Part shown: positions 4,042-36,936 of the stretch, piece by piece | Layout: the number at the start of each line of letters is the position of its first letter | How positions within the stretch are numbered: position 1 is the first letter of the stretch | DNA from: an uncultured Candidatus Saccharibacteria bacterium | Lineage (GTDB): Bacteria; Patescibacteriota; Minisyncoccia; Phycocordibacterales; UBA12088 | Length of the DNA: 36,936 nt | Direction of reading: 5' to 3' | Assembly (NCBI GenBank): GCA_964562615.1 | Contig: CAZLUD010000001.1 | Span: 1 to 36,936 of the forward strand | The notes under the pieces: model-generated | The model's database searches: none | Told to the model about the DNA's origin: nothing | Seen by the model: only the letters and a program-made list of their open reading frames with translations | Translations under genes and position numbers: made by a program

Positions 4042-5217
4042 CTATGTCTTCAAGTATTTCTTATTGATAGCAACTGACTTGGTAGAAACATCAAGAAAAT
4101 CCTTGATTTTTGTGTCCTGTGCGATGATACCGTTTACCTTTTTTCCTGCCTGATAGACCTTGTTTTTTGACAGTTCTTCAATCTCTTCAAAAGAGTAGTT
4201 CCAGTCCTCAAGCACTTCATCGTTAGCCCATACCTTGTGCGTATCCTTGAATAGGGTCCGCATCAGCTTGTGTGGGTCGCTTTCTTCTTTAGTTGAGATG
4301 AGTACTGGCACGCCCATAAAGTGCAAGGTCCTCGTGCTGTCATCAAAGCGTAGTTCGCTCGTGTCATCGGTATCGTTTGCTATCAGTTCCTTCGTGATAA
4401 ATGCGTGGACCCGTTGAGCGTAGCTTCTGAAATCCTTGACCTTGAACATCACGACATCGTTATCTGATTTTTCGCCTTTCCGTATCTTTTCCATTTCCAC
4501 ATAAACACCTACAAAGTTGAGCCAATCCCAATGAAAAGCGTTCTCTTTTTGAGTTTCTGCTTGCACTTCGGCTTTCAGCTCTTCGGGCTCAAAAACAAGC
4601 CGTTCTACAAAGGGTAAATGTTCCCAAGCACCCCACGGCTCAACCTGTTCTTTGCGTTCAAGTTTTCGCTCTTCTTCATCTATGACCTCGTAGGTAGGCG
4701 AAAAGGTAAAGTTGCCGTAAATGTTATGGTTTTTCTTCTTGTTATCTACAAAGGGCTCCACCTCTTTTTCGTGTCCGCTTGCCTTCAGGTGTCGGGCAAC
4801 ATCAAACAGGTCGCTATCAAAGGCATAAAGCGGATTTGATGACAAAATCCGTCCTTGCATACGGTCGTGAACTTCTTGGACCGCTCGGATAACGGGCTGA
4901 TACTTTTCAGTGATTTCTTGCGTTTGCTTGATAATCGGCTCGTATTGCTTGATGACTTTTTCAGCGATAGGGATGAGTTTGTTTGCCGATTGAGTAAGTT
5001 CCTTCATCGCTTTCGTGTTCATCAGCTCGTAGGTCTTTCGTGCCATTTCCCGCTGAGTTTCAAGTGCCTGTATGAAGGGCTTAGTTTGTGTCATTTCTCG
5101 GACCGTTTTTGTGTATTCGGCAAGACCACGAAAAAAGTCCCAACTATCTTGTAGGTTGATGAAGCTGTTGTACTGTTGCTCTACGATTTTGAGAGCTTTT
5201 TCATTACTTCCTTTCAT
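4042..5217 (-). CDS. Hypothetical protein (391 aa)
   Basis: Long uninterrupted ORF with non-repetitive composition. It is helix-rich at the N-terminus. No family recognised by eye. Confidence 0.6.
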   Translation of the reverse strand: MKGSNEKALKIVEQQYNSFINLQDSWDFFRGLAEYTKTVREMTQTKPFIQALETQREMARKTYELMNTKAMKELTQSANKLIPIAEKVIKQYEPIIKQTQEITEKYQPVIRAVQEVHDRMQGRILSSNPLYAFDSDLFDVARHLKASGHEKEVEPFVDNKKKNHNIYGNFTFSPTYEVIDEEERKLERKEQVEPWGAWEHLPFVERLVFEPEELKAEVQAETQKENAFHWDWLNFVGVYVEMEKIRKGEKSDNDVVMFKVKDFRSYAQRVHAFITKELIANDTDDTSELRFDDSTRTLHFMGVPVLISTKEESDPHKLMRTLFKDTHKVWANDEVLEDWNYSFEEIEELSKNKVYQAGKKVNGIIAQDTKIKDFLDVSTKSVAINKKYLKT

Positions 5218-5310: not shown

Positions 5311-5796
5311 ATGACTGCTCGGACAAAAACACTAAAAGTGCTTGATGTTGGCAAGTATTTCATACACCTTGCTAATCAAGACAAAAAGCCGATTACCAAC
5401 AAAAAACTGCAAAAGCTTGTTTATTACTCACAAGCTTGGTCTTTGGTGCTGAATGATAAAAAGCTTTTCAGTGAGCCGATAGAGGCGTGGGTTCACGGAC
5501 CCGCTGTTCGTAGCTTGTATGTTCAATACAAAAACTTTGGCTTCAATCCAATAACGGAAGATGTTGATGCAAGTACTATCTCGCTTTCTGCCGATAACAA
5601 GAAGCTTCTTGATGAGGTGTGGAAAGTTTACGGCAAACTTGATGCGGGTTATTTGGAAATGCTCACTCACTCAGAACAGCCGTGGCAAGAAGCAAGAAAC
5701 GGACTACAAAGCTACTCAAACTCAAACAATGAGATAACGCCAAAAGCTATGAAGAGTTTTTATTCTGCAAAGCTTGAAAAAGCCCAGAAGAAGTAA
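5311..5796 (+). CDS. Panacea (DUF4065 / SocA-GepA-like) domain protein, antitoxin-like
   Basis: KKLQKLVYYSQAWSLVLNDKKLFSEPIEAWVHGPAVRSLYVQYKNFG is the hallmark DUF4065 block. Confidence 0.75.
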   Translation: MTARTKTLKVLDVGKYFIHLANQDKKPITNKKLQKLVYYSQAWSLVLNDKKLFSEPIEAWVHGPAVRSLYVQYKNFGFNPITEDVDASTISLSADNKKLLDEVWKVYGKLDAGYLEMLTHSEQPWQEARNGLQSYSNSNNEITPKAMKSFYSAKLEKAQKK

Positions 5797-5804
5797 AAAC
5801 TCCA

Positions 5805-6248
5805 ATGGTAGACATTCCTAAACAGGTTGCTAAGACCGCTGATGATGATAGTGAACTACCGCAAACTGTTGCGGAAATACCTCAGGATGTAGAAGCCCCT
5901 GAGGCAAATCCTTATGTCATATCTTTTGCCAAATACAACGAAAAAATGTGTGAACTCACACAACTCAATAACAATAAAGCGAAGCGAGCAATAGAAACCC
6001 TAAAAACTATCGGAACGAAGGTCCGTTCAACTGCTGATTATCAAAGACATTCTGTGGACCGTATTCCTGTAAGGTGCGAGGGAGAATACAAAAAACTCTT
6101 CAAGGGCTTAGAGGACGACATTGAACTAAAGGAAATCAAACTGCAACAAAGTGCAAGGGTGTTCTATTTTGACATTGAGCCCGAAAGGACTTTTTACGTC
6201 GTGGCTATTACTGACAATCATCTTGAAACTGACAAGGTTAGACGGTAG
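5805..6248 (+). CDS. Hypothetical protein; candidate toxin partner of the Panacea protein (RelE/ParE-like C-terminal pattern)
   Basis: It starts 8 nt after the Panacea gene stop. It has an acidic, probably disordered N-terminus. The C-terminal ARVFYFDIEPERTFYVVAITDNH resembles the terminal beta-strands of RelE/ParE/Gp49-type toxins, but weakly. Confidence 0.4.
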   Translation: MVDIPKQVAKTADDDSELPQTVAEIPQDVEAPEANPYVISFAKYNEKMCELTQLNNNKAKRAIETLKTIGTKVRSTADYQRHSVDRIPVRCEGEYKKLFKGLEDDIELKEIKLQQSARVFYFDIEPERTFYVVAITDNHLETDKVRR

Positions 6249-6690: not shown

Positions 6691-7434
6691 CTATTTAATC
6701 AAATCCCAATTATTCAAGAAGTAGCTCATATCGTGTCCACCGCCAAGGAATATTTTTCCCTCACGAATCTTTATGGTTAGCGCATATCCAGTTTGATTGT
6801 TCACTGCATATACAGCACCTTCTTTTATCTTTCGTTCAACTTCACTTGAGGGTAGGATAACGAATTTATTCTCTTTTTGGCGTAGTACTAAAATGTAGAA
6901 AATATTTCCCTGATTGTGACGTTCGAATGAGACTTTACGTATGTGGAAATTGTACACATCAAATTTGTTGGAGTTCGAGGTTTTAACCTGAATACCAAAA
7001 AATTTATTATCCTTGATCGCTGAAATATCCACTCCAACATCCACGCTCATTATACTTGCGTTGTATCCACGAAAAAGAAGCTCGCTAGTCACCAAATGTT
7101 CACCACCTTTACCTGTGTATCCACCCTCAACAATTATTTTTTCATCTTCTACTTTCTCTTTTTCAACAATTTTATTGATTGCTTTCTCAGTTGGTTTTAT
7201 GACCACCTTCTGATCATTGAGTGTAAAAGTACCTTTTGATGTTTGCACGAAATCAGATGCCTTACCCTTATTCTTGATATCCATATACATCTGAGCGCCC
7301 ATGGTTGCCTCGGGGACCGCACTTTCAGTTACAAGTAAGCCACCTTCTAGGGCTAGTCTTGTGATCTCAGAAACATGCAGGGGTTTACCTGCTTTCTTGA
7401 GGACCTGTATTGCTGATGATTTGAAGGTGTTCAT
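6691..7434 (-). CDS. HARE-HTH domain fused to a PD-(D/E)xK-type endonuclease domain
   Basis: The N-terminus AIQVLKKAGKPLHVSEITRLALEGGLL...VPEATMGAQMYMDIK...FVQTSKGTFTLND matches the HARE-HTH pattern. The C-terminus GGEHLVTSELLFRGYNASIMSVDVGVDISAIKDNKFFGIQVKTS gives an E...D...QVK nuclease pattern. The start lies 3 nt after the hsdR stop. Confidence 0.65.
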   Translation of the reverse strand: MNTFKSSAIQVLKKAGKPLHVSEITRLALEGGLLVTESAVPEATMGAQMYMDIKNKGKASDFVQTSKGTFTLNDQKVVIKPTEKAINKIVEKEKVEDEKIIVEGGYTGKGGEHLVTSELLFRGYNASIMSVDVGVDISAIKDNKFFGIQVKTSNSNKFDVYNFHIRKVSFERHNQGNIFYILVLRQKENKFVILPSSEVERKIKEGAVYAVNNQTGYALTIKIREGKIFLGGGHDMSYFLNNWDLIK

Positions 7435-7437
7435 AGA

Positions 7438-10407
7438 TTATTTTTTCATTTTCTTAACCACAAACTCGAACACACGTTCTTGTACAAACTTCTTAAGCTC
7501 TGGACTTTGGTCAAGTTTTTGATAAAGGCTAAAGTGCTTATCAAGCACACTCACGAGCTCATCCTGGAAGAGCTGATCGAATTTCAACTTAGCGGCATCT
7601 TTGCTGTTGTTCATCACTGAACCCTGAAGGACCTCACTTTCAAGTAATCGCTTACTCAAGTCATTAAGAATCACTCGATCGCCATCATTGAAGCTTGTAC
7701 CGTATCGTTCATTTACTTCTTTGATAATTCGAGACAAAGCATCCTTCTCTTCTTCAGAAGGTGTCTTACCGTCTCCACCGCCCATAGGCTCAATAAGGCC
7801 TTCTGCATTTTCTAATTGAACATGCATTTCACCTTTCTTTTCCACTCGGTATGTTTCCATGTCTATTGCCTGAAGGACCTCATACGGTAGTGGGTTTTCA
7901 CGCTTAGGAAGCTTTCTGATCAGATACTTCAAGAATATAAATAACTTTTCCAACTGAGGATCTTCGAAGGTCACAATCTGTGAGATGAATGCGTACTTCT
8001 TGAGATAATCAAATACCGTAGACTTGAAACTTTCCATTTCTTCTTCAGTAAGATTTTCTTCGTTGATTCGAGAAACCACGCTATCAATGATGTAGTTTGG
8101 CTTGTCAGGAGTTGCCTTTGAATACAGCTCATCGATGAATCCGTTCACTTCAAAATCAGTGAAGAACTTAAAGCCACGCACATCTCGCTCGAGATCGTGC
8201 AGGATGTTTGGATCTGTCGCTTCCGAGAGGACTGTAGTTGTGTAGTAAGGCTGGAAAGCATCCTTGATATCATCAGTCAGGTTTACGAAATCAAGAACAA
8301 AGGTTTCTTCTTTATTATATGTAGTTCGATTGAGACGAGATAGAGTCTGGACCGCACCAACGCCACCAAGTTTCTTATCTACGTACATTACCGATAGAAG
8401 TGGCTGGTCAAATCCAGTCTGGAACTTCTCAGCTACGATCAGGAACTTGTAGTCATCATTTTTGAATTCTTCAGCAGTCCGACTCTCAGGAACCTTGTTC
8501 ATCTGACCTTCTGTATATTCAAGCTTGGTGTCGACATCCTTTACTGTTCCAGAGAAAGCCACCAACGCTTTGTGAGCATATCCCTTTTCTTTGAGATATT
8601 TATCAAACGCAAGTTTGTACCTTACGGCATGGAGTCGCGACTTGGTTACCACCATAGCTTTTGCCTTGCCGTTAATAAGCGATGCAATCTTTTCTTCAAA
8701 GTGTTCAACCATGATCGCTACCTTCTTGTCGATAGCATGTTCATGTCGCTCAACGTATCCAACCATAAGTCGCTGAGCCTTCTTCTTGTCGAATTCCGGA
8801 TCGTCTTCAACCTTCTTCAAGAGTCCGAAGTAAGTTTCGTATGTCGTGTAGTTCTTGAGCACATCGAGAATAAACTTCTCTTCAATAGCTTGCTTCATTG
8901 AATAGAGGGAGAAGGGGCCAAATTTACCTGTTACCGCATCTTCAGTACCGAAGAGCTCAAGAGTCTTCTGTTTTGGAGTAGCTGTAAAGGCAAAGAATGA
9001 AAGATTTGGAGATGCTACTTTTCTCGCCTTCATGCGTTCAACAATCTGATCCTCAATCGTTTTAAATGCCTTCTCTTCATCTTGGCTTTCTTTTTCTGCC
9101 TCATCGAGGGTGAGAACCTGTCGCAAATCGGCCGCCGATTCACCTGATTGTGATGAATGTGCCTCATCAATAATCACTGCAAATTTTCTACCTTCAACTT
9201 TTTCTATAGCATCCACAATAACTGGAAACTTCTGCAAGGTTGTGGTGATGATCTTTACTCCAGCTTCAAGTGACTCCTTGAGCTCTTTACCACCATTCTC
9301 GACATGCTTAACAAGACCAGTTACCTGGCTAAAGCTTTTAACGGTATCTGAAAGTTGTCTATCAAGAACTCGTCGATCAGTTACAACTATCACACCATCA
9401 AACACATTCTTTCCTTCAGTGTCGTGAAGTTCAGCTAATCTGTGTGCGGTCCAAGCAATAGTATTACTCTTTCCGGACCCAGCACTGTGTTGGATCAAAT
9501 AGTTTTTACCTGCGCCTTGAACTTTGGTATCTTCGACGATTCTTTTCACTGTCTCGAGCTGGTGATATCGAGGAAAGATAACTTTCTCTTCCTTTCGCTT
9601 TTTACCATTCTTGTCTTCCTTTTCTTCGGTTACATCCTGTATGAAGTTACCGATCAAATCAAAGATACTATCCTTGGACCAGATCTCTTCCCAGAGATAA
9701 TGGGTTTTATATTTTCCTTTTGGTGCTTCAGGATTGCCAGACGATCCATTATTACCCTTGTTGAATGGTAGGAAGTAAGTGGTAAGTCCTGAAAGTCGAG
9801 TAGTCATGTATGCTTGCTCAGTGTCGACAGCAAAATGTGTGAGGCATCTCTTGAACCCGAGCAACTTTTCTTTCTGGTCACGATCTGTTCTGTATTGAGA
9901 GATTGCGTTGATGACATTCTGTCCGGTGAATTGATTCTTGAGTTCAGCGGTAAATAGGGGGAGACCGTTTACAAAGATCACTGTATCGATGGAGTTCTCA
10001 TTCTTCGCACTATATTTGACCTGGCGCATTACGCTCAGAATATTCCCTGCGTAGTCGGCAAGTGTCTCAGGATTTCTATCGTTTTCTGGTTTGAAATATG
10101 CAAGCTGGATAGTTACACCTCTATCCTTTATACCTTCCCGTAAAACACTAAGAAGACCACGAGAAAGAAGCTCTTCATCAAGTCTAGCCAAGAACCTTTC
10201 GGCCACATTGTCGCCATACTGTTCGACAAGCTTATCCCAGTTATCCTTTTGGGTAGTTTGAATAAACTCGAGAACCAACTCTGTATCCATACAAAGCTCT
10301 TTGTTGTATGAAGAAGTTGATCGAGTGCGGTATCCATGAAGACCCTTGAGTTCTTGCTCAATAAATTCTTCAAATCCTGATTCTTTTGTGTTTGTTTTTG
10401 TTGTCAT
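7438..10407 (-). CDS. hsdR: Type I restriction enzyme R subunit
   Basis: 989 aa. The N-terminal nuclease motif is DTVIFVNGLPLFTAELK, the Walker A motif is HSAGSGKSNT, and the DEAH box is VIIDEAHSSQSG. Helicase C-terminal blocks are also present. Confidence 0.9.
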   Translation of the reverse strand: MTTKTNTKESGFEEFIEQELKGLHGYRTRSTSSYNKELCMDTELVLEFIQTTQKDNWDKLVEQYGDNVAERFLARLDEELLSRGLLSVLREGIKDRGVTIQLAYFKPENDRNPETLADYAGNILSVMRQVKYSAKNENSIDTVIFVNGLPLFTAELKNQFTGQNVINAISQYRTDRDQKEKLLGFKRCLTHFAVDTEQAYMTTRLSGLTTYFLPFNKGNNGSSGNPEAPKGKYKTHYLWEEIWSKDSIFDLIGNFIQDVTEEKEDKNGKKRKEEKVIFPRYHQLETVKRIVEDTKVQGAGKNYLIQHSAGSGKSNTIAWTAHRLAELHDTEGKNVFDGVIVVTDRRVLDRQLSDTVKSFSQVTGLVKHVENGGKELKESLEAGVKIITTTLQKFPVIVDAIEKVEGRKFAVIIDEAHSSQSGESAADLRQVLTLDEAEKESQDEEKAFKTIEDQIVERMKARKVASPNLSFFAFTATPKQKTLELFGTEDAVTGKFGPFSLYSMKQAIEEKFILDVLKNYTTYETYFGLLKKVEDDPEFDKKKAQRLMVGYVERHEHAIDKKVAIMVEHFEEKIASLINGKAKAMVVTKSRLHAVRYKLAFDKYLKEKGYAHKALVAFSGTVKDVDTKLEYTEGQMNKVPESRTAEEFKNDDYKFLIVAEKFQTGFDQPLLSVMYVDKKLGGVGAVQTLSRLNRTTYNKEETFVLDFVNLTDDIKDAFQPYYTTTVLSEATDPNILHDLERDVRGFKFFTDFEVNGFIDELYSKATPDKPNYIIDSVVSRINEENLTEEEMESFKSTVFDYLKKYAFISQIVTFEDPQLEKLFIFLKYLIRKLPKRENPLPYEVLQAIDMETYRVEKKGEMHVQLENAEGLIEPMGGGDGKTPSEEEKDALSRIIKEVNERYGTSFNDGDRVILNDLSKRLLESEVLQGSVMNNSKDAAKLKFDQLFQDELVSVLDKHFSLYQKLDQSPELKKFVQERVFEFVVKKMKK

Positions 10408-10408
10408 A

Positions 10409-11650
10409 TTATTCGCTGTAAATGTTATATATCAAGTGGTGTATCTTTATTGTCTTGCCAGAGTCCTCAGGGAGAGTGTGATCGGATACAAAGTGGTTAC
10501 TGCTCAACTGTTTGAATCCTGATTTGTATTGCGCGTGTTTTTGAATGATGTCTGGTATTTGAGTTAGTATCTTTGAAAAATCCCTATTCTTTGAAAACAT
10601 AATCACGACGCCATAGTTTTGTCTCCAGGTAACATATCCCATTAATTGATCTATAGTATCTAGATATATTTTTTCTCCACCCCAATTTTTACATTCAAAA
10701 ATCAAAATTTCTCCCTTCTCGATCTTGAGATGTATATCTGTTTTACCTTTTTTAACAAAAGTCTCTCCCGTAGCATTGCCTTCAAAAATACCATTTAGCG
10801 CAGAAAGGATCACATCACGAAGTTGCTCTTCTCCTAATTGTTTATAAGCACCAGGAGTCCTCTCAAATGTTCTGCATTGATTATCGACGAATCCTAAGAT
10901 ATCTTTCAAAATCGATTCCTCAAGCGTATACTCTTCTGGTAATTTCGGGGTTGGTTTTACAATATGAACAAACTTTTTTACGTCAACATGGATTTTTGTA
11001 GCTGAAGGACTAGGCTTCTGTTTCAACGGTATTTTTATCTTCTGAGTTAGCGTATTTAACTTTTCCTTGTCGCTTGCTAATTTTTCTTTTCTTTTAGCAA
11101 TCCCATCTTTTATTGTTTTCAAGAGAAGAGCGTTTCCGGATTCAATACTAGAGTTCTTTTGATTCAGACTCTCAATAAGTCTTTGGGATTTTGTGTTGAT
11201 CTCGTTTGCAATACTGTCTTCGCTAGAGTGGCCACCATACCACTTAACGTCAAAAGAAAATGAGATCTCGTTTGGACCATAGACGACTCTTTTATCAAAA
11301 CCATCCATATGGTGCACAGGACCAGATAACTTCTTTAGCCAATCCAAATTAGGGTTGCTTTGTATCGGAATAGAAACTACAGCTGACTCATATTCAAAAT
11401 CGAGGTCACCTTCGTGGCGGTAAAATTCGTCACGTTGATGAGCGGGCACTCGTCGAACTTCTTTCTTCATTTCATACGACAAGTCCGCTGAATCGAATGC
11501 TAGTGGGACCAGAGCATATTTTTGACAATAGAAATTCGCAAGATCATCTATTTCTGATCCTAAAATTTGCTCATCAGACTCCCGCAAGATGTCTTGATTG
11601 AACATCTCGATAGCTTTTCTATAATAATCGTCAAAAGTTGGTCCAAACAT
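10409..11650 (-). CDS. Uncharacterised 413-aa protein with a C-terminal PD-(D/E)xK nuclease-like motif, embedded between hsdS and hsdR
   Basis: The gaps are 4 nt to hsdS and 1 nt to hsdR. The motif D305-x13-E319-C-K321 lies in TDIHLKIEKGEILIFECK (nt 10688-10738), preceded by the helix GEEQLRDVILSALNG. The N-terminal ~200 aa are unrecognised, and a Lys-rich linker lies in the middle. Confidence 0.5.
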   Translation of the reverse strand: MFGPTFDDYYRKAIEMFNQDILRESDEQILGSEIDDLANFYCQKYALVPLAFDSADLSYEMKKEVRRVPAHQRDEFYRHEGDLDFEYESAVVSIPIQSNPNLDWLKKLSGPVHHMDGFDKRVVYGPNEISFSFDVKWYGGHSSEDSIANEINTKSQRLIESLNQKNSSIESGNALLLKTIKDGIAKRKEKLASDKEKLNTLTQKIKIPLKQKPSPSATKIHVDVKKFVHIVKPTPKLPEEYTLEESILKDILGFVDNQCRTFERTPGAYKQLGEEQLRDVILSALNGIFEGNATGETFVKKGKTDIHLKIEKGEILIFECKNWGGEKIYLDTIDQLMGYVTWRQNYGVVIMFSKNRDFSKILTQIPDIIQKHAQYKSGFKQLSSNHFVSDHTLPEDSGKTIKIHHLIYNIYSE

Positions 11651-11654
11651 ATAT

Positions 11655-12887
11655 TTATACTTTAATTTTTCCTGTTACCACACTGGAAATAAGTGAGGAC
11701 TTGAACTCCTGTAAAAATTCAATTGATCTATTAATATCAGAAATCAGTTTTTCAAAAACTTCCATTTTTTCGTCCAATGATTTAACAATTTTTATTTGCT
11801 CTTCTATTGGTGGGTAGGAAATCATTTGATTCCCAATAAATTGCCAATTTGCTCGAGGCATCTTTGTCCCATAGGTGGAATCATTAATCGCTTTTATAAA
11901 ATCTTTACTTAACAATTTATAAAATAAATACTTTGGAATAACCTTGCCCTTTTTGGGTACAAGAGTCAGGAATTCACCGCTACAAACACCATCAAAATCC
12001 ACAGACAAAACCTTTGCTAAATATGGTCTTAATTTCCCAAAAAGCACATCTCCTTTGTAAAATATATTTACCGAGCTTTCAGGTTCAGACTTCTCTTTAG
12101 AATCAACAATTTTACCAGTGAGGCTTTCTACATTCTCAAGGCCTATGTATTTCAGATTTGCAGGGGCAATATCTAATTTTATTTTCCTTTCTGGCGCTAT
12201 ATATTTTAATTTTTCGGTACTTCCAAGAACATTTGTAACTGATTCGTTAATAGTTTCAGATTTCTTCTCTTTTAGAAGCTCGATCAACTTTTGTTTCTTC
12301 TCAATGATTTGATCGATTGAAAATGTTTTTTCATCAAGAAAAGCTACTATTGCTTTCTGTTGATTAAGGGGAGGTATAGGAACCGGTTCTATCTTTAGGA
12401 GATCTGAATTTATGGATTCTCTCAATTCCATTATTCCTTTACCAAGTCTCCCTAAGGTTTTTTGCCACGATTTATTTCTAAATAAATAATGGTAATAATC
12501 AGCAAATATTTCTTTATTTCTCGGATAGTAAATAATATATACAGAACTTGTAACACCAAGCTCTTTTGACTGTCCTACAGAACCAATTACAAGATTCATG
12601 CTATTTAGGACAATGTCTCCAGCGTGAACTATCTTATAGTTCTCAGGTCGATCAGAACTCTTATTACCAACATCACCCTTATCCGCATATCTAATTACAC
12701 CAACATCTTTCATTACAGAAAGTATATTGTCGGTTACGAGTTTTTTGTTTTTTTCTACCCTTTCAACTAATACAGACCGAAGTGGCCCAACTTGCCAATC
12801 TTTCGGAACTTTTCCAAACCACTCAACACCTGAATCTTTGTATTCAGGATATTTCTCATATTTCTTTGTAAGTTTGAGTGTTTGCAT
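11655..12887 (-). CDS. hsdS: Type I R-M specificity subunit
   Basis: 410 aa with two TRD-like halves separated by conserved helical spacers (LNQQKAIVAFLDEKTFSIDQIIEKKQKLIELLKEKK and EEQIKIVKSLDEKMEVFEKLISDINRSIEFLQEFKSSLISSVVTGKIKV). It sits between hsdM and hsdR. Confidence 0.85.
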   Translation of the reverse strand: MQTLKLTKKYEKYPEYKDSGVEWFGKVPKDWQVGPLRSVLVERVEKNKKLVTDNILSVMKDVGVIRYADKGDVGNKSSDRPENYKIVHAGDIVLNSMNLVIGSVGQSKELGVTSSVYIIYYPRNKEIFADYYHYLFRNKSWQKTLGRLGKGIMELRESINSDLLKIEPVPIPPLNQQKAIVAFLDEKTFSIDQIIEKKQKLIELLKEKKSETINESVTNVLGSTEKLKYIAPERKIKLDIAPANLKYIGLENVESLTGKIVDSKEKSEPESSVNIFYKGDVLFGKLRPYLAKVLSVDFDGVCSGEFLTLVPKKGKVIPKYLFYKLLSKDFIKAINDSTYGTKMPRANWQFIGNQMISYPPIEEQIKIVKSLDEKMEVFEKLISDINRSIEFLQEFKSSLISSVVTGKIKV

Positions 12888-12891
12888 ATAA

Positions 12892-14874
12892 TTAGAGTTG
12901 CTTTAGGAGAGTGAGTAATTCATTCTCGACCTTTTCTATGTCAGTCTCTATTTCCTCAAGACTTCGTGGGGCCTCGTACTTGTAGAAGTGCCGAGTGAAT
13001 GGAATCTCGTAGCCCACGATACCAACCTTGCCATCTTTGTGATCTCGGACGGATTCATTGATCCAAGCATCAGACACGTATGGCTTCACCTCTTTATCAA
13101 AATATTCCTTGATATCCATCTCATATGGAACATTCTCAAAATCACGCAAAGACGTGTCTGCCTCTGGATCGCCATTCTTATCAAGTACGATGTCGGCTTC
13201 AGGATCGCTTTCACTAAAGGTAGAGATAATCTTTTTGTAGAGTGCGGCCGTAAGCTTACCGGATACATACTGCCCAACCCTTTTATCGAAAGCTTCTTCG
13301 AATACCTTCTTGCTCATATATATCTGATTCTCGAAAGATTCTATGAGTGTCTTTACGCCAGCTTTAATAGCGCTTGGATCAAGAGTCGCTGTAATCTCTT
13401 TTATTTTCTCTGGAGTGAAATCAAGCTTGAGACGCAGAGGGCGCTCAATGGTGATCTGTCTGTATGCAAAGTCTGTTGTCTTGAAAATCTTTGAGTGTTC
13501 ATTTTCCTCAAATTTCTCGTACAAATCCAAGATTTGTTTTTTGTGTTCAGTGTCAATCTCATGTCGTTTGCTACCAAGGCTCTTGCGAGTCTTCTTGAAG
13601 AGGGCGCGAGCATCGACAAGCTGAACCTTACCTTTTCTTTCTTTTGACTTTCTGTTGGTAACAAACCAAAGGTATGTATTGATACCTGTGTTATAGAAAA
13701 GCTGATCAGGCAATGCGACGATTGTTTCGAGTAGATCCTTTTCAAGAATCCATCTTCGAATCTCACTTTCTCCGCTACCGGCATCGCCAGTAAATAGTGG
13801 GGACCCGTTGTGAACAATCGCTATACGTGAGCCACCATCTTTCTCAGGCTTCATCTTTGAAATGAGGTGTTGCAAGAACAAAAGCTGACCATCTGATATA
13901 CGAGGAGTCCCTGCACCAAAACGTCCTGCGTATCCACGTGTTGCTTCGCGCTCTACAGCATCTTTATCTTTCTTCCAATCAACTCCGTAGGGTGGATTAC
14001 TTAATCCGTAGTCAAATACTTCTGCAAAGAATTGATCGTTGGCGAGTGTACTTGCTTTTGAATGGTCTTTTTCACCACCTCGAATGAGGTCTGGATTATC
14101 ACCCTTGATAAGCATGTCTGACTTGGCCATAGCGTAAGTCACCGAGTTAAGTTCTTGACCGTAAAGGAAAATATCAGCTTCTTTGTTTATGTTTTCTAGA
14201 ATGTAATCCTTGGCAACAGAAAGCATGCCGCCAGTACCGCAGGCAGGGTCATAAATCTTTTTGATAACATGAGGTTTCTTGAGATCCTTCTTGTCAGGCG
14301 AGAAAAGCATCTCAGTCATGAGCCCAATCACATCTCTTGGCGTATAGTGCTCTCCGGCAGTTTCGTTGGACATTTCAGAAAACTTTCGGAGAAGTTCTTC
14401 GAAGATGTGTCCCATCTGATAGTTGTCTACTTTGGAAGGATGTAGATCCACCTTGTTTAATTCCTGGATCACGTAGAATAAGAGATCACCACCTTCGAGT
14501 CGCTCAAGTTGTTTACTGAAATCAAACTTCTCAAAAATGTCTTGGATATTCTTGCTGTAGCCATTGATGTATTGTTTGAAGTTCTTTGCAAGATGCTTTG
14601 GCTCTCCAAGAATAGTTTTGAAATTGTAATCAGAGATATTGTAAAAGGCTGTACCTGAAGTCTTCTTGAGGATGGGGTCAAGGTCATTCACTTTGCCTTT
14701 GTACTCATTGTATTTCTCGAGGACTGAAGCTTTGGTATCGGCAAGAATAGAGTCGAGACGCTTCAAAACCACCAAGGGCAATATCACGTCTTGGTATTCG
14801 TGTTGTTTCCAGCCGCCACGCAAGATGTCGGCTATACTCCAGATCATTGATGTTTTTTGGTTGAAATTTTCCAT
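12892..14874 (-). CDS. hsdM: Type I R-M N6-adenine DNA methyltransferase subunit
   Basis: The HsdM N-terminal pattern is IWSIADILRG. Motif I is IYDPACGTGGML and motif IV is LSNPPYG. Confidence 0.9.
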   Translation of the reverse strand: MENFNQKTSMIWSIADILRGGWKQHEYQDVILPLVVLKRLDSILADTKASVLEKYNEYKGKVNDLDPILKKTSGTAFYNISDYNFKTILGEPKHLAKNFKQYINGYSKNIQDIFEKFDFSKQLERLEGGDLLFYVIQELNKVDLHPSKVDNYQMGHIFEELLRKFSEMSNETAGEHYTPRDVIGLMTEMLFSPDKKDLKKPHVIKKIYDPACGTGGMLSVAKDYILENINKEADIFLYGQELNSVTYAMAKSDMLIKGDNPDLIRGGEKDHSKASTLANDQFFAEVFDYGLSNPPYGVDWKKDKDAVEREATRGYAGRFGAGTPRISDGQLLFLQHLISKMKPEKDGGSRIAIVHNGSPLFTGDAGSGESEIRRWILEKDLLETIVALPDQLFYNTGINTYLWFVTNRKSKERKGKVQLVDARALFKKTRKSLGSKRHEIDTEHKKQILDLYEKFEENEHSKIFKTTDFAYRQITIERPLRLKLDFTPEKIKEITATLDPSAIKAGVKTLIESFENQIYMSKKVFEEAFDKRVGQYVSGKLTAALYKKIISTFSESDPEADIVLDKNGDPEADTSLRDFENVPYEMDIKEYFDKEVKPYVSDAWINESVRDHKDGKVGIVGYEIPFTRHFYKYEAPRSLEEIETDIEKVENELLTLLKQL

Positions 14875-14882
14875 GGTGTTTA

Positions 14883-16019
14883 TTATTTATTAAAGAGATT
14901 AATGTATTCGGTAAGGTAGAAGATTCGATCCTTCTTGAGTCCGGTCTTCTCTGAGAACAAACCGAGCTTAACGAAATCTTTTGTTATTGCTGACGCTGTC
15001 GGGAATGTTACTGAGAGCATTGACTCGATGTCTCGAATCGTTACAACCGGCTGTGAGAACAGACAACGCAAAAGTTCTTTACCGAGTTTTTGGCGTTTGA
15101 TACCCATGCCTTTTTCGATTGTCGTCTCGTACTTCTTTCGGAGGTCGATAATCTTCTCGAGTGTCTGTCTTGAATTCTTTGCAGTCTCAAGCACACCGGT
15201 AAGGAAGAATCTCAACCAGTGTTCGATGTCGTTTGTTTCGCGAACACGTGAAAGACCATCGTAATATTGCGGACGATGCTTTTCAAAGAAATCTGAAATG
15301 TAGAGAGTTGGTTTCTGTAGAATACCGAGGCTTACCAAGTGAAGTGTGATAAGTAGTCGGCCAATACGTCCGTTACCATCGAGGAATGGATGGATGGTTT
15401 CAAATTGGTAGTGAGAAATAGCTATCTTTACAAGGTCTGGAATATCCAGCTCTTTGTTATGCCAAAATCTTTCAAGGTCACTCAAAAGCTCACCAACTTC
15501 TTCGTGGTGGGGTGGAATAAATACCGCATCCTTGAGAGTTGCGCCACCAATCCAATTCTGACTTCGGCGAACTTCTCCTGGAAGTTTTGTGTATCCACGA
15601 ACGCTTGAAAGCAAAACTTTGTGCGTATCTCTTGCAAGTCGCATTGATAGCGGCAACTTTTCAAGCTCTGCTATTGAGTAGTTGATCGCTTTGACGTAGT
15701 TTTGAACTTCTTCCCAGTCATTTCTTTTTTCTGGATCAATTTCGAGCTCAGGGAGAAGTGCCTCATCGAGTTTTGTCTGCGTACCCTCAATCTTACTTGA
15801 TGTGGTAGCTTCTTTTGCGATGTGCATTTTTATGAAAAAATCCACGTCAGGGACCAACTTTGAAAAAGCATTGAGCTCGCCTAGATATCTCATGGCATCA
15901 GCAAGAAGGACATCAATGCGCTTGTCTGTCCATTCAAAACTCTTATTAACCAAAGACGGCTGAAAGCTCTTGTAGCCCTCGTGTTGCTTATGGGTTCCTG
16001 ACTTGTATTCTTCTGTCAT
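14883..16019 (-). CDS. fic: Fic family protein (class II, N-terminal inhibitory helix) with a C-terminal wHTH-like tail
   Basis: The Fic core is [14 protein letters not shown]. The inhibitory motif (S/T)xxxE(G/N) is present as TSSKIEGT upstream of the core. Confidence 0.9.
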
Positions 16020-16075
16020 GCGTGCATCCTATCATTTTAATTTAAAGAATGCAAATTTAAAGTTTAAGGCTTAAT

Positions 16076-16102
16076 CTTTAATTTAGATTTATTAAATTAA
16101 AG
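16076..16102. promoter_or_regulatory. 10-bp perfect inverted repeat (CTTTAATTTA-n7-TAAATTAAAG) upstream of fic; operator candidate
   Basis: Read directly from the sequence. Two direct AATTTAAAG copies also occur at 16039-16047 and 16054-16062. The context is AT-rich, so a chance occurrence is plausible. Confidence 0.25.
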
Positions 16103-16193
16103 ATAGAAAACAGGCACAAAATGCCATAATTTGTTGATAAATAAGGCTTTTATAGGTCTTGGAAGAGACTAAATGAGAGTTAAGATATAGCTA

Positions 16194-36818: not shown

Positions 36819-36889
36819 CGGGATGTAGTATAGTGGTAGTACGCATCCATGGGGTGGATGTAGTCCGAGTTCGATTCTCGGCATCCCGA
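36819..36889 (+). tRNA. tRNA-Pro (anticodon GGG), no encoded CCA
   Basis: Hand-folded cloverleaf. The acceptor stem is CGGGATG/CATCCCG. The D arm is GTAT-AGTGGTA-GTAC. The anticodon arm is CATCC-ATGGGGT-GGATG. The variable loop is TAGT. The T arm is CCGAG-TTCGATT-CTCGG. The discriminator is A. Confidence 0.85.
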
Positions 36890-36936
36890 CAACCACTAAA
36901 ATATGAAGACAACAATAGTTTTATTTTACAAATACG

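Follow-up and report, generated by a model that had tools for sequence, protein, structure and literature searches.

A PDC-S54 family protein in a type I restriction-modification cassette of an uncultured Saccharibacteria bacterium: a candidate anti-phage nuclease

The window analyzed here, a stretch of 36,936 nucleotides (nt) from an uncultured Candidatus Saccharibacteria bacterium (contig CAZLUD010000001.1), carries an open reading frame (ORF) of 413 amino acids (aa), called ORF413 in the following. It runs from ATG to stop at positions 10409-11650 of the minus strand and lies between hsdS and hsdR of a type I restriction-modification (R-M) operon. We computed its family membership, domain layout, conservation pattern and genomic contexts. 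Judged by its sequence, ORF413 is a further member of PDC-S54, a catalogued, uncharacterised candidate family. On balance, we favour the reading that it is a single-gene, self-contained candidate anti-phage nuclease, carried as cargo in a mobile type I R-M cassette.

Among the hidden Markov models (HMMs) of PADLOC-DB v2, PDC-S54 (PDLC05036) was the sole match to ORF413 at E ≤ 0.1 (E 1.9e-83, 279 bits). The match is end to end, as residues 6-411 align with model positions 13-407 of 410. PDC stands for 'phage defence candidate', a term from a recent preprint in which genes located inside BREX, DISARM and type I R-M systems were gathered; once families linked to mobility, to known defence or to housekeeping had been taken out, 145 candidates entered PADLOC (Payne, Hughes, Fineran & Jackson 2024, bioRxiv 10.1101/2024.01.29.577857). 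An earlier note on this DNA had called the protein 'unrecognised' and had suggested an embedded effector. Because of this survey, the same idea had already been applied systematically, and PDC-S54, flagged via guilt-by-embedding and listed by PADLOC, is among its results. ORF413 corresponds to the class as it was defined, being a full-length match and a single gene embedded in type I R-M. No feature sets it apart from its family, which is itself uncharacterised and without domain annotation. Pfam and NCBIfam gave no match to ORF413, and the family has no model in either; when ORF413, its halves and consensus sequences were searched against Pfam, NCBIfam and PHROGs, no match of note was obtained. 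Our literature search returned no paper naming PDC-S54, and the family was not among the PDCs tested in a cold-seep study (PMC12881386).

A word-index search retrieved 154 proteins, nearly all of about 413 aa. The named members among them are all 'hypothetical', except for one fragment that is a 'Holliday junction resolvase' in one source. An exhaustive profile search found 3,520 representatives (clusters at 50% identity) at E ≤ 1e-3, and 1,684 at E ≤ 1e-30. The genome matches fall in Saccharibacteria, Paceibacterota and other members of the candidate phyla radiation (CPR), as well as in Bacteroidota, Proteobacteria, Planctomycetota, Chloroflexota, Verrucomicrobiota and archaea. Relatives were also present on 21 plasmids and in 2 phage records, and a scan of IMG/VR with the patterns used revealed no viral contig encoding one.

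Within the operon, the gene is closely flanked on both sides. The end of hsdS (11655-12887, minus strand; Methylase_S, E 4.6e-19), which lies directly upstream, is 4 nt from the start of ORF413, and the stop codon of ORF413 is followed after 1 nt by the start of hsdR (7438-10407, minus strand; HSDR_N, SWI2_SNF2, ResIII and T1R_D3-like domains; PADLOC REase_I, E 1.5e-42). The reading frame, the neighbours and both gaps agree with the description of a gene wedged between hsdS and hsdR given in the earlier note. Upstream of hsdS are hsdM (12892-14874, minus strand; N6_Mtase, E 2.4e-61; HsdM_N, E 6.1e-24) and, as first gene of the cassette, a SoFic-type Fic gene (14883-16019, minus strand; Fic_N and Fic domains; PADLOC SoFic, E 3.3e-116), which sits 8 nt upstream of hsdM. 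The order on the minus strand is SoFic, hsdM, hsdS, ORF413, hsdR and a gene for a HARE-HTH protein (6691-7434). Since SoFic heads the cassette, this is an operon with two extra defence-type genes, SoFic and ORF413. A promoter scan of the operon stayed at chance level, and a terminator scan showed no convincing internal terminator.

The segment from SoFic to hsdR (SoFic-hsdM-hsdS-ORF413-hsdR; 8.7 kb, 7435-16103, minus strand) is common to other CPR genomes. In blastn comparisons, it was 82-91% identical at the nucleotide level to a locus of a Saccharibacteria metagenome-assembled genome (MAG) (L003, 4290-14213) and to one of a Paceibacterota MAG (L004, 4733-14216). The flanks and the target-recognition regions of hsdS are not common to the window and these two loci. 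Because the MAGs have the cassette span in common but not its flanks, we consider ORF413 to be cargo of an 8.7-kb mobile cassette. The hsdS recognition domains are swapped, and the comparison suggests that the cassette was recently transferred horizontally among CPR bacteria. In L003, an additional gene between hsdM and hsdS (7506-8687) encodes a protein that matches DUF2130 (E 6.3e-63) and starts with a zinc ribbon. This gene is absent from the window, and its presence in L003 indicates that the cassette family accepts several inserts.

Next to ORF413 relatives elsewhere, type I genes are found in a minority of cases. Hsd genes are nearby in 8-9 of 39 loci, namely L002, L003, L004, L008, L010, L024, L028 and L032, plus the decayed remnant L026. 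The R-M-linked relatives are 33-94% identical to ORF413, and the diverged ones among them (33-47% identity; L008, L010, L024, L028 and L032) are embedded in different type I operons. The gene orders vary (S-ORF413-R, S-ORF413-x-R, R-ORF413-M-S and M-S-x-x-ORF413), which indicates that embedding happened more than once. In the decayed copy (L026, 9989-10831), the C-terminal part of the homologue (aa 255-379, 87% identity) is fused to an internal hsdR fragment; as the fragments are joined directly, a deletion must have removed the junction between ORF413 and hsdR.

About 30 loci have no Hsd genes, and about 78% of the relatives are not R-M-linked. This includes relatives from Pedobacter and Mucilaginibacter at 58-64% identity, of which the one in Pedobacter polaris (64% identity) adjoins an integrase and hypothetical genes. 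The neighbours at loci without Hsd genes comprise large serine recombinases and integrases, regulators and ATPases (ImmA/IrrE-type, AAA_21/AAA_15 ATPase, STAND-like NTPase and HerA-like ATPases), SNF2 helicases, Cas4-like PDDEXK_1 proteins, translesion polymerases, a retron Ec67-type reverse transcriptase and RelE/HigA toxin-antitoxin genes. No partner gene is conserved, since no neighbour family accounts for more than 7 of the 116 neighbours across 38 loci. These contexts portray a gene that is autonomous and belongs to defence islands and mobile elements. The earlier note was right in placing the gene inside a type I hsd operon, and the family is defence-associated, with a listing in PADLOC. 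A Cas4-like PDDEXK_1 protein comes immediately before the ORF413 homologue in a Komeilibacteria MAG (L007, 1-459) and a Saccharibacteria MAG (L023, 6314-7060). In L023, this protein comes after a HerA-like ATPase and a ResIII helicase that includes a TnsA-like endonuclease domain. Such a setting may represent a different host system for the same cargo.

The conserved part of the protein is its C-terminal domain (C-domain; aa 245-413, 10412-10918, minus strand), a putative PD-(D/E)xK nuclease domain with E274, D305, E319-C-K321 and Q335-x3-Y339. We assessed conservation in 118 representatives that are 23-64% identical to the window protein. E274, R278, E296, F298, D305, E319, W323 and Q335 are identical in all 118, K321 is kept in 115 and Y339 in 109. 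At such low overall identity, this conservation goes beyond chance. Mean pairwise identity is 38% in the C-domain, versus 17% in residues 1-140 and 18% in the long helix that follows them. The contrast between a variable N-terminus and a conserved C-terminal D...ExK domain, as drawn in the earlier note, is therefore borne out. D305, E319 and K321 are at the residues it had named, within the segment TDIHLKIEKGEILIFECK (residues 304-321), although this 18-residue motif spans nt 10688-10741 and not 10688-10738. The acidic helix peptide GEEQLRDVILSALNG corresponds to residues 273-287.

When the C-domain was modelled alone, the predicted local distance difference test score (pLDDT) was 89.6 and the predicted template modelling score (pTM) 0.88. 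In this model, DSSP assigned (full-length numbering) a helix at 274-288 with E274 and R278, a short strand at 292-293, a strand at 305-310 that begins with D305, a strand at 313-322 with E319-C-K321, a helix at 326-339 with Q335 and Y339, a strand at 346-353, a helix at 358-370 and three further strands at 375-409. The predicted alpha-beta-beta-beta-alpha-beta succession is the PD-(D/E)xK order, in which strand 2 starts with D305, strand 3 holds ExK and the helix after it holds QxxxY; this agreement concerns element order only. The series E, D, ExK and QxxxY is the motif pattern of the RecB-family and HsdR nuclease domains. ORF413 has the same ordered motifs (D, ExK, QxxxY) with similar spacing as the N-terminal nuclease domain of HsdR and the RecB-family nucleases. 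However, its family is separate from them, lacks a helicase domain and has its own invariant residues R278, E296, F298 and W323.

Profile comparisons pointed in the same direction. When the 118 members were scanned singly, the recurrent Pfam matches other than coiled coils were all to PD-(D/E)xK-type nuclease families: NERD (9 members), pPIWI_RE_REase (8; best E 9.7e-5), Hjc (3), HSDR_N (3), Mrr_cat (2) and NucS_C (2). One family variant matches PDDEXK_11 (E 1.3e-3). In an hhalign comparison with a 121-sequence HSDR_N alignment, D305, E319-x-K321, Q335 and Y339 were in register, in a weak alignment of 49 columns (P 0.011). A comparison with a two-sequence Cas4-like alignment was uninformative, as the effective number of sequences (Neff) was too low. 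Searching PDB sequences with three family profiles by hmmsearch gave coiled-coil or chance matches only.

The N-terminal half of the protein is of a different nature. A full-length AlphaFold2 model was computed from a 30-sequence alignment (mean pLDDT 83). Residues 1-140 (11231-11650, minus strand) make up a poorly conserved alpha/beta domain (N-domain), the proposed sensor, with pLDDT of about 73-94, helices at 6-45 and strands at 58-68, 83-96 and 122-137. A long single helix follows (aa ~141-205, 11036-11230, minus strand; helix 144-204 by DSSP, pLDDT >90). From the model, it is possibly a coiled-coil or oligomerisation element, and coiled-coil noise was its sole match in the databases. The Lys/Pro-rich linker (aa ~206-244, 10919-11035, minus strand) is predicted to be disordered. 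It includes a conserved I-P-L at 207-209, with I207 and L209 at least 90% conserved (alignment A1), and its pLDDT drops below 50 at 207-209 and 212-229. The Lys-rich stretch covers residues 186-216.

As in the earlier note, the N-terminal half matched nothing recognisable: Pfam, NCBIfam, PDB sequences (beyond coiled-coil noise) and the full-length Foldseek search gave no relative, and PHROGs gave only weak matches, to families of unknown function. The linker and C-domain also occur behind unrelated N-termini, in P0157 (390 residues), P0204 (217) and P0222 (185). These N-terminal regions had no Pfam match, and hhalign compared them to the N-domain profile with probabilities of 0.1-19%. Such exchangeable N-termini fit a conserved effector joined to swappable sensing or targeting parts. 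P0218 bears a thioredoxin domain in place of the usual N-terminus.

We infer nuclease activity, a role in defence and, for the N-domain, a role as sensor. In the mechanism that we propose, the N-terminal alpha/beta domain would, by analogy, sense an infection cue, and the helix of ~60 residues would mediate oligomerisation. The C-terminal domain would be the effector, a Mg2+-dependent PD-(D/E)xK DNA nuclease of the RecB/HsdR-like motif type. ORF413 would work without the Hsd proteins, and its co-location with hsdMSR and SoFic would mean that layered defences are transferred and expressed together, not that it is physically guarded.

Several results weigh against this mechanism. The C-domain model found nothing at E ≤ 1e-3 when searched with Foldseek against PDB and BFVD. 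Its top match was DNA polymerase beta (E 5.8e-3, template modelling score (TM) 0.28, root-mean-square deviation (rmsd) 18 A), and proteins of the PD-(D/E)xK group (YaeQ, a Vsr-like endonuclease and Rpb5) appeared only among the weak matches. Every Pfam nuclease match of the ORF413 family is below the gathering threshold. At the loci without R-M genes, the association with defence is uneven, and several of the adjacent genes have housekeeping or unknown functions. The searchable literature holds no phage-defence or nuclease experiment for the PDC-S54 family, and the N-domain is taken for a sensor purely by analogy. Since Foldseek gave no significant match in PDB or BFVD, we regard the PD-(D/E)xK fold of the C-domain as likely but not proven; the assignment draws on motif conservation, secondary-structure order and sub-threshold profile matches. 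The structure search that the earlier note had named as a test of its claim thus gave no clean confirmation of a restriction-endonuclease fold. ORF413 probably encodes a nuclease.

Other readings of the gene were weighed against the same data. ORF413 could be a type IV modification-dependent endonuclease, in which the N-domain would recognise modified phage DNA for cleavage by the C-domain, complementing the type I system. In E. coli K-12, mrr and mcrBC adjoin hsdRMS, and an N-terminal reader followed by a C-terminal D...ExK nuclease is the established Mrr/MspJI-type layout. The linker of ORF413 is basic, and the weak Mrr_cat and NERD matches of some members would suit this role as well. However, searches of Pfam and PDB sequences and the full-length Foldseek search detected no winged-helix, SRA, PUA/EVE or other known reader in the N-domain, and no member reaches the Mrr_cat threshold (best E 0.0095 in the two matching members). 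We consider a type IV enzyme unlikely.

The match to Mrr_cat in two members, below the gathering score, likewise led us to reject membership in the Mrr family. Membership in Shedu was rejected since no PADLOC match to SduA was obtained at E ≤ 0.1; DUF4263 was absent from the Pfam matches of the window protein and from the 25 most recurrent families among the 118 members. The Mrr_cat and DUF4263 comparisons named in the earlier note thus yielded no family for ORF413. With Shedu (SduA) and Mrr, the protein has in common the general logic of a variable N-terminal part and a conserved C-terminal D...ExK nuclease, but it differs from them in these matches.

Alternatively, ORF413 could be kept latent by binding to HsdMS or HsdR and be set free once the type I enzyme is disabled by an anti-restriction factor of a phage. 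This is the PrrC-style logic of an effector 'held in check by R-M' that the earlier note had invoked. The prrC gene of EcoprrI occupies the hsdS-hsdR junction, which is the position of ORF413, and its spacing from the adjacent genes (4 nt and 1 nt) suggests that it is co-translated with the Hsd subunits. The order S-ORF413-R also recurs in L003, L004, L032 and L010. In L024, however, the order is R-ORF413-M-S, and in L028 two genes lie between hsdS and the homologue. Homologues at 58-64% identity stand alone. Dependence on R-M in the manner of PrrC is not a trait of the family, since just 8-9 of 39 loci have Hsd genes. PrrC has ABC-ATPase and RNase domains and cleaves tRNA-Lys, whereas ORF413 has neither domain. 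Membership in PrrC was rejected, as there was no match to the PrrC model in PADLOC and no ATPase or HEPN-type match in Pfam. In the survey, PrrC itself is described as a gene that is found almost exclusively inside type I R-M systems (Payne et al., bioRxiv 10.1101/2024.01.29.577857). For these reasons, we hold the guarded effector to be distinctly unlikely.

Equally doubtful to us is a function outside defence, in which the nuclease would serve a mobile element or DNA repair and recombination and R-M junctions would merely tolerate its insertion. Large serine recombinases make up 5 of the 116 neighbours, which also comprise rve integrases, an ImmA/IrrE-type regulator and translesion polymerases (UmuDC; DnaE2/ImuB-like), and the homologues on 21 plasmids point the same way. 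On the other hand, a conserved partner gene is missing, and relatives were found in the 2 phage records only and, with the patterns used, not on IMG/VR viral contigs. The repeated independent embedding in type I operons speaks against such a function too, as does the PDC curation, which removed mobility-associated families.

A further idea, to which we attach little probability, combines sensing with the type I enzyme. The N-domain would be an undescribed sensor fold. R-M-embedded copies would use it to monitor the type I enzyme (for instance HsdR or HsdM blocked by DNA mimics of the Ocr/ArdA type, or stalled translocation) and would then unleash the DNA nuclease, while stand-alone copies would sense other cues via their fast-evolving N-domain. 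If true, this would be a DNA-targeting, PrrC-independent 'anti-anti-restriction' back-up.

Finally, a C-domain without the restriction-endonuclease fold, for instance a polymerase-beta-like nucleotidyltransferase toxin, is hardly credible and was rejected. In its favour, the top Foldseek matches, all of them weak, were to DNA polymerases beta and lambda, to MenT1 and to viral proteins labelled 'NT pol-beta-like', and the spacing G295-x9-D305 loosely recalls the hG[GS]...DxD motif. These matches, however, have E ≥ 5.8e-3, TM ≤ 0.28 and rmsd of ~18 A. In place of the second carboxylate of DxD there is H or Y, no helix lies between the glycine segment and the D strand, and the near-invariant ExK and QxxxY fit the PD-(D/E)xK pattern. 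The 25 most recurrent Pfam matches contain no nucleotidyltransferase family against six PD-(D/E)xK nuclease families. With the full-length model, Foldseek found only weak polymerase beta and glyoxalase-like matches in PDB.

Further genes were noted around the operon. The HARE-HTH protein of 247 aa (6691-7434, minus strand) starts 4 nt inside the end of hsdR and lies outside the cassette common to L003 and L004. The HARE-HTH domain (E 1.2e-16) is N-terminal, and the C-terminal region gave weak matches to Hjc, PDDEXK_5 and Cap4_nuclease and matched phrog_5018 (E 1.1e-8). From these matches, the protein appears to be another putative nuclease added on to the operon. On the plus strand, the region 5311-6248 holds a SocA/Panacea-domain antitoxin-like gene (161 aa, E 1.5e-20) and, 8 nt on, an ORF of 147 aa without a family. 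By their sequences, the two genes probably form a toxin-antitoxin pair of the PanA type, located beside the R-M island. For an adjacent ORF of 391 aa (4042-5217, minus strand), Pfam, PADLOC, NCBIfam and PHROGs gave no significant family. The sole tRNA of the window, a tRNA-Pro (GGG) at 36819-36890 on the plus strand, is far from the R-M island.

To a specialist, a D...ExK effector in a type I operon will come as no surprise, and both the idea and the family are already in PADLOC; the locus is valuable as a well-defined test case and not as a new kind. The interest that is left lies in the size of the family, the lack of a curated domain model and the orphan N-domain, for which no relatives were detected and from which a new mode of infection sensing could be learned. 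The window also illustrates cleanly how a type I R-M cassette acts as a vehicle, moving SoFic and PDC-S54 from one CPR lineage to another. Should PDC-S54 prove to be a working defence, a widespread single-protein system would join the known repertoire.

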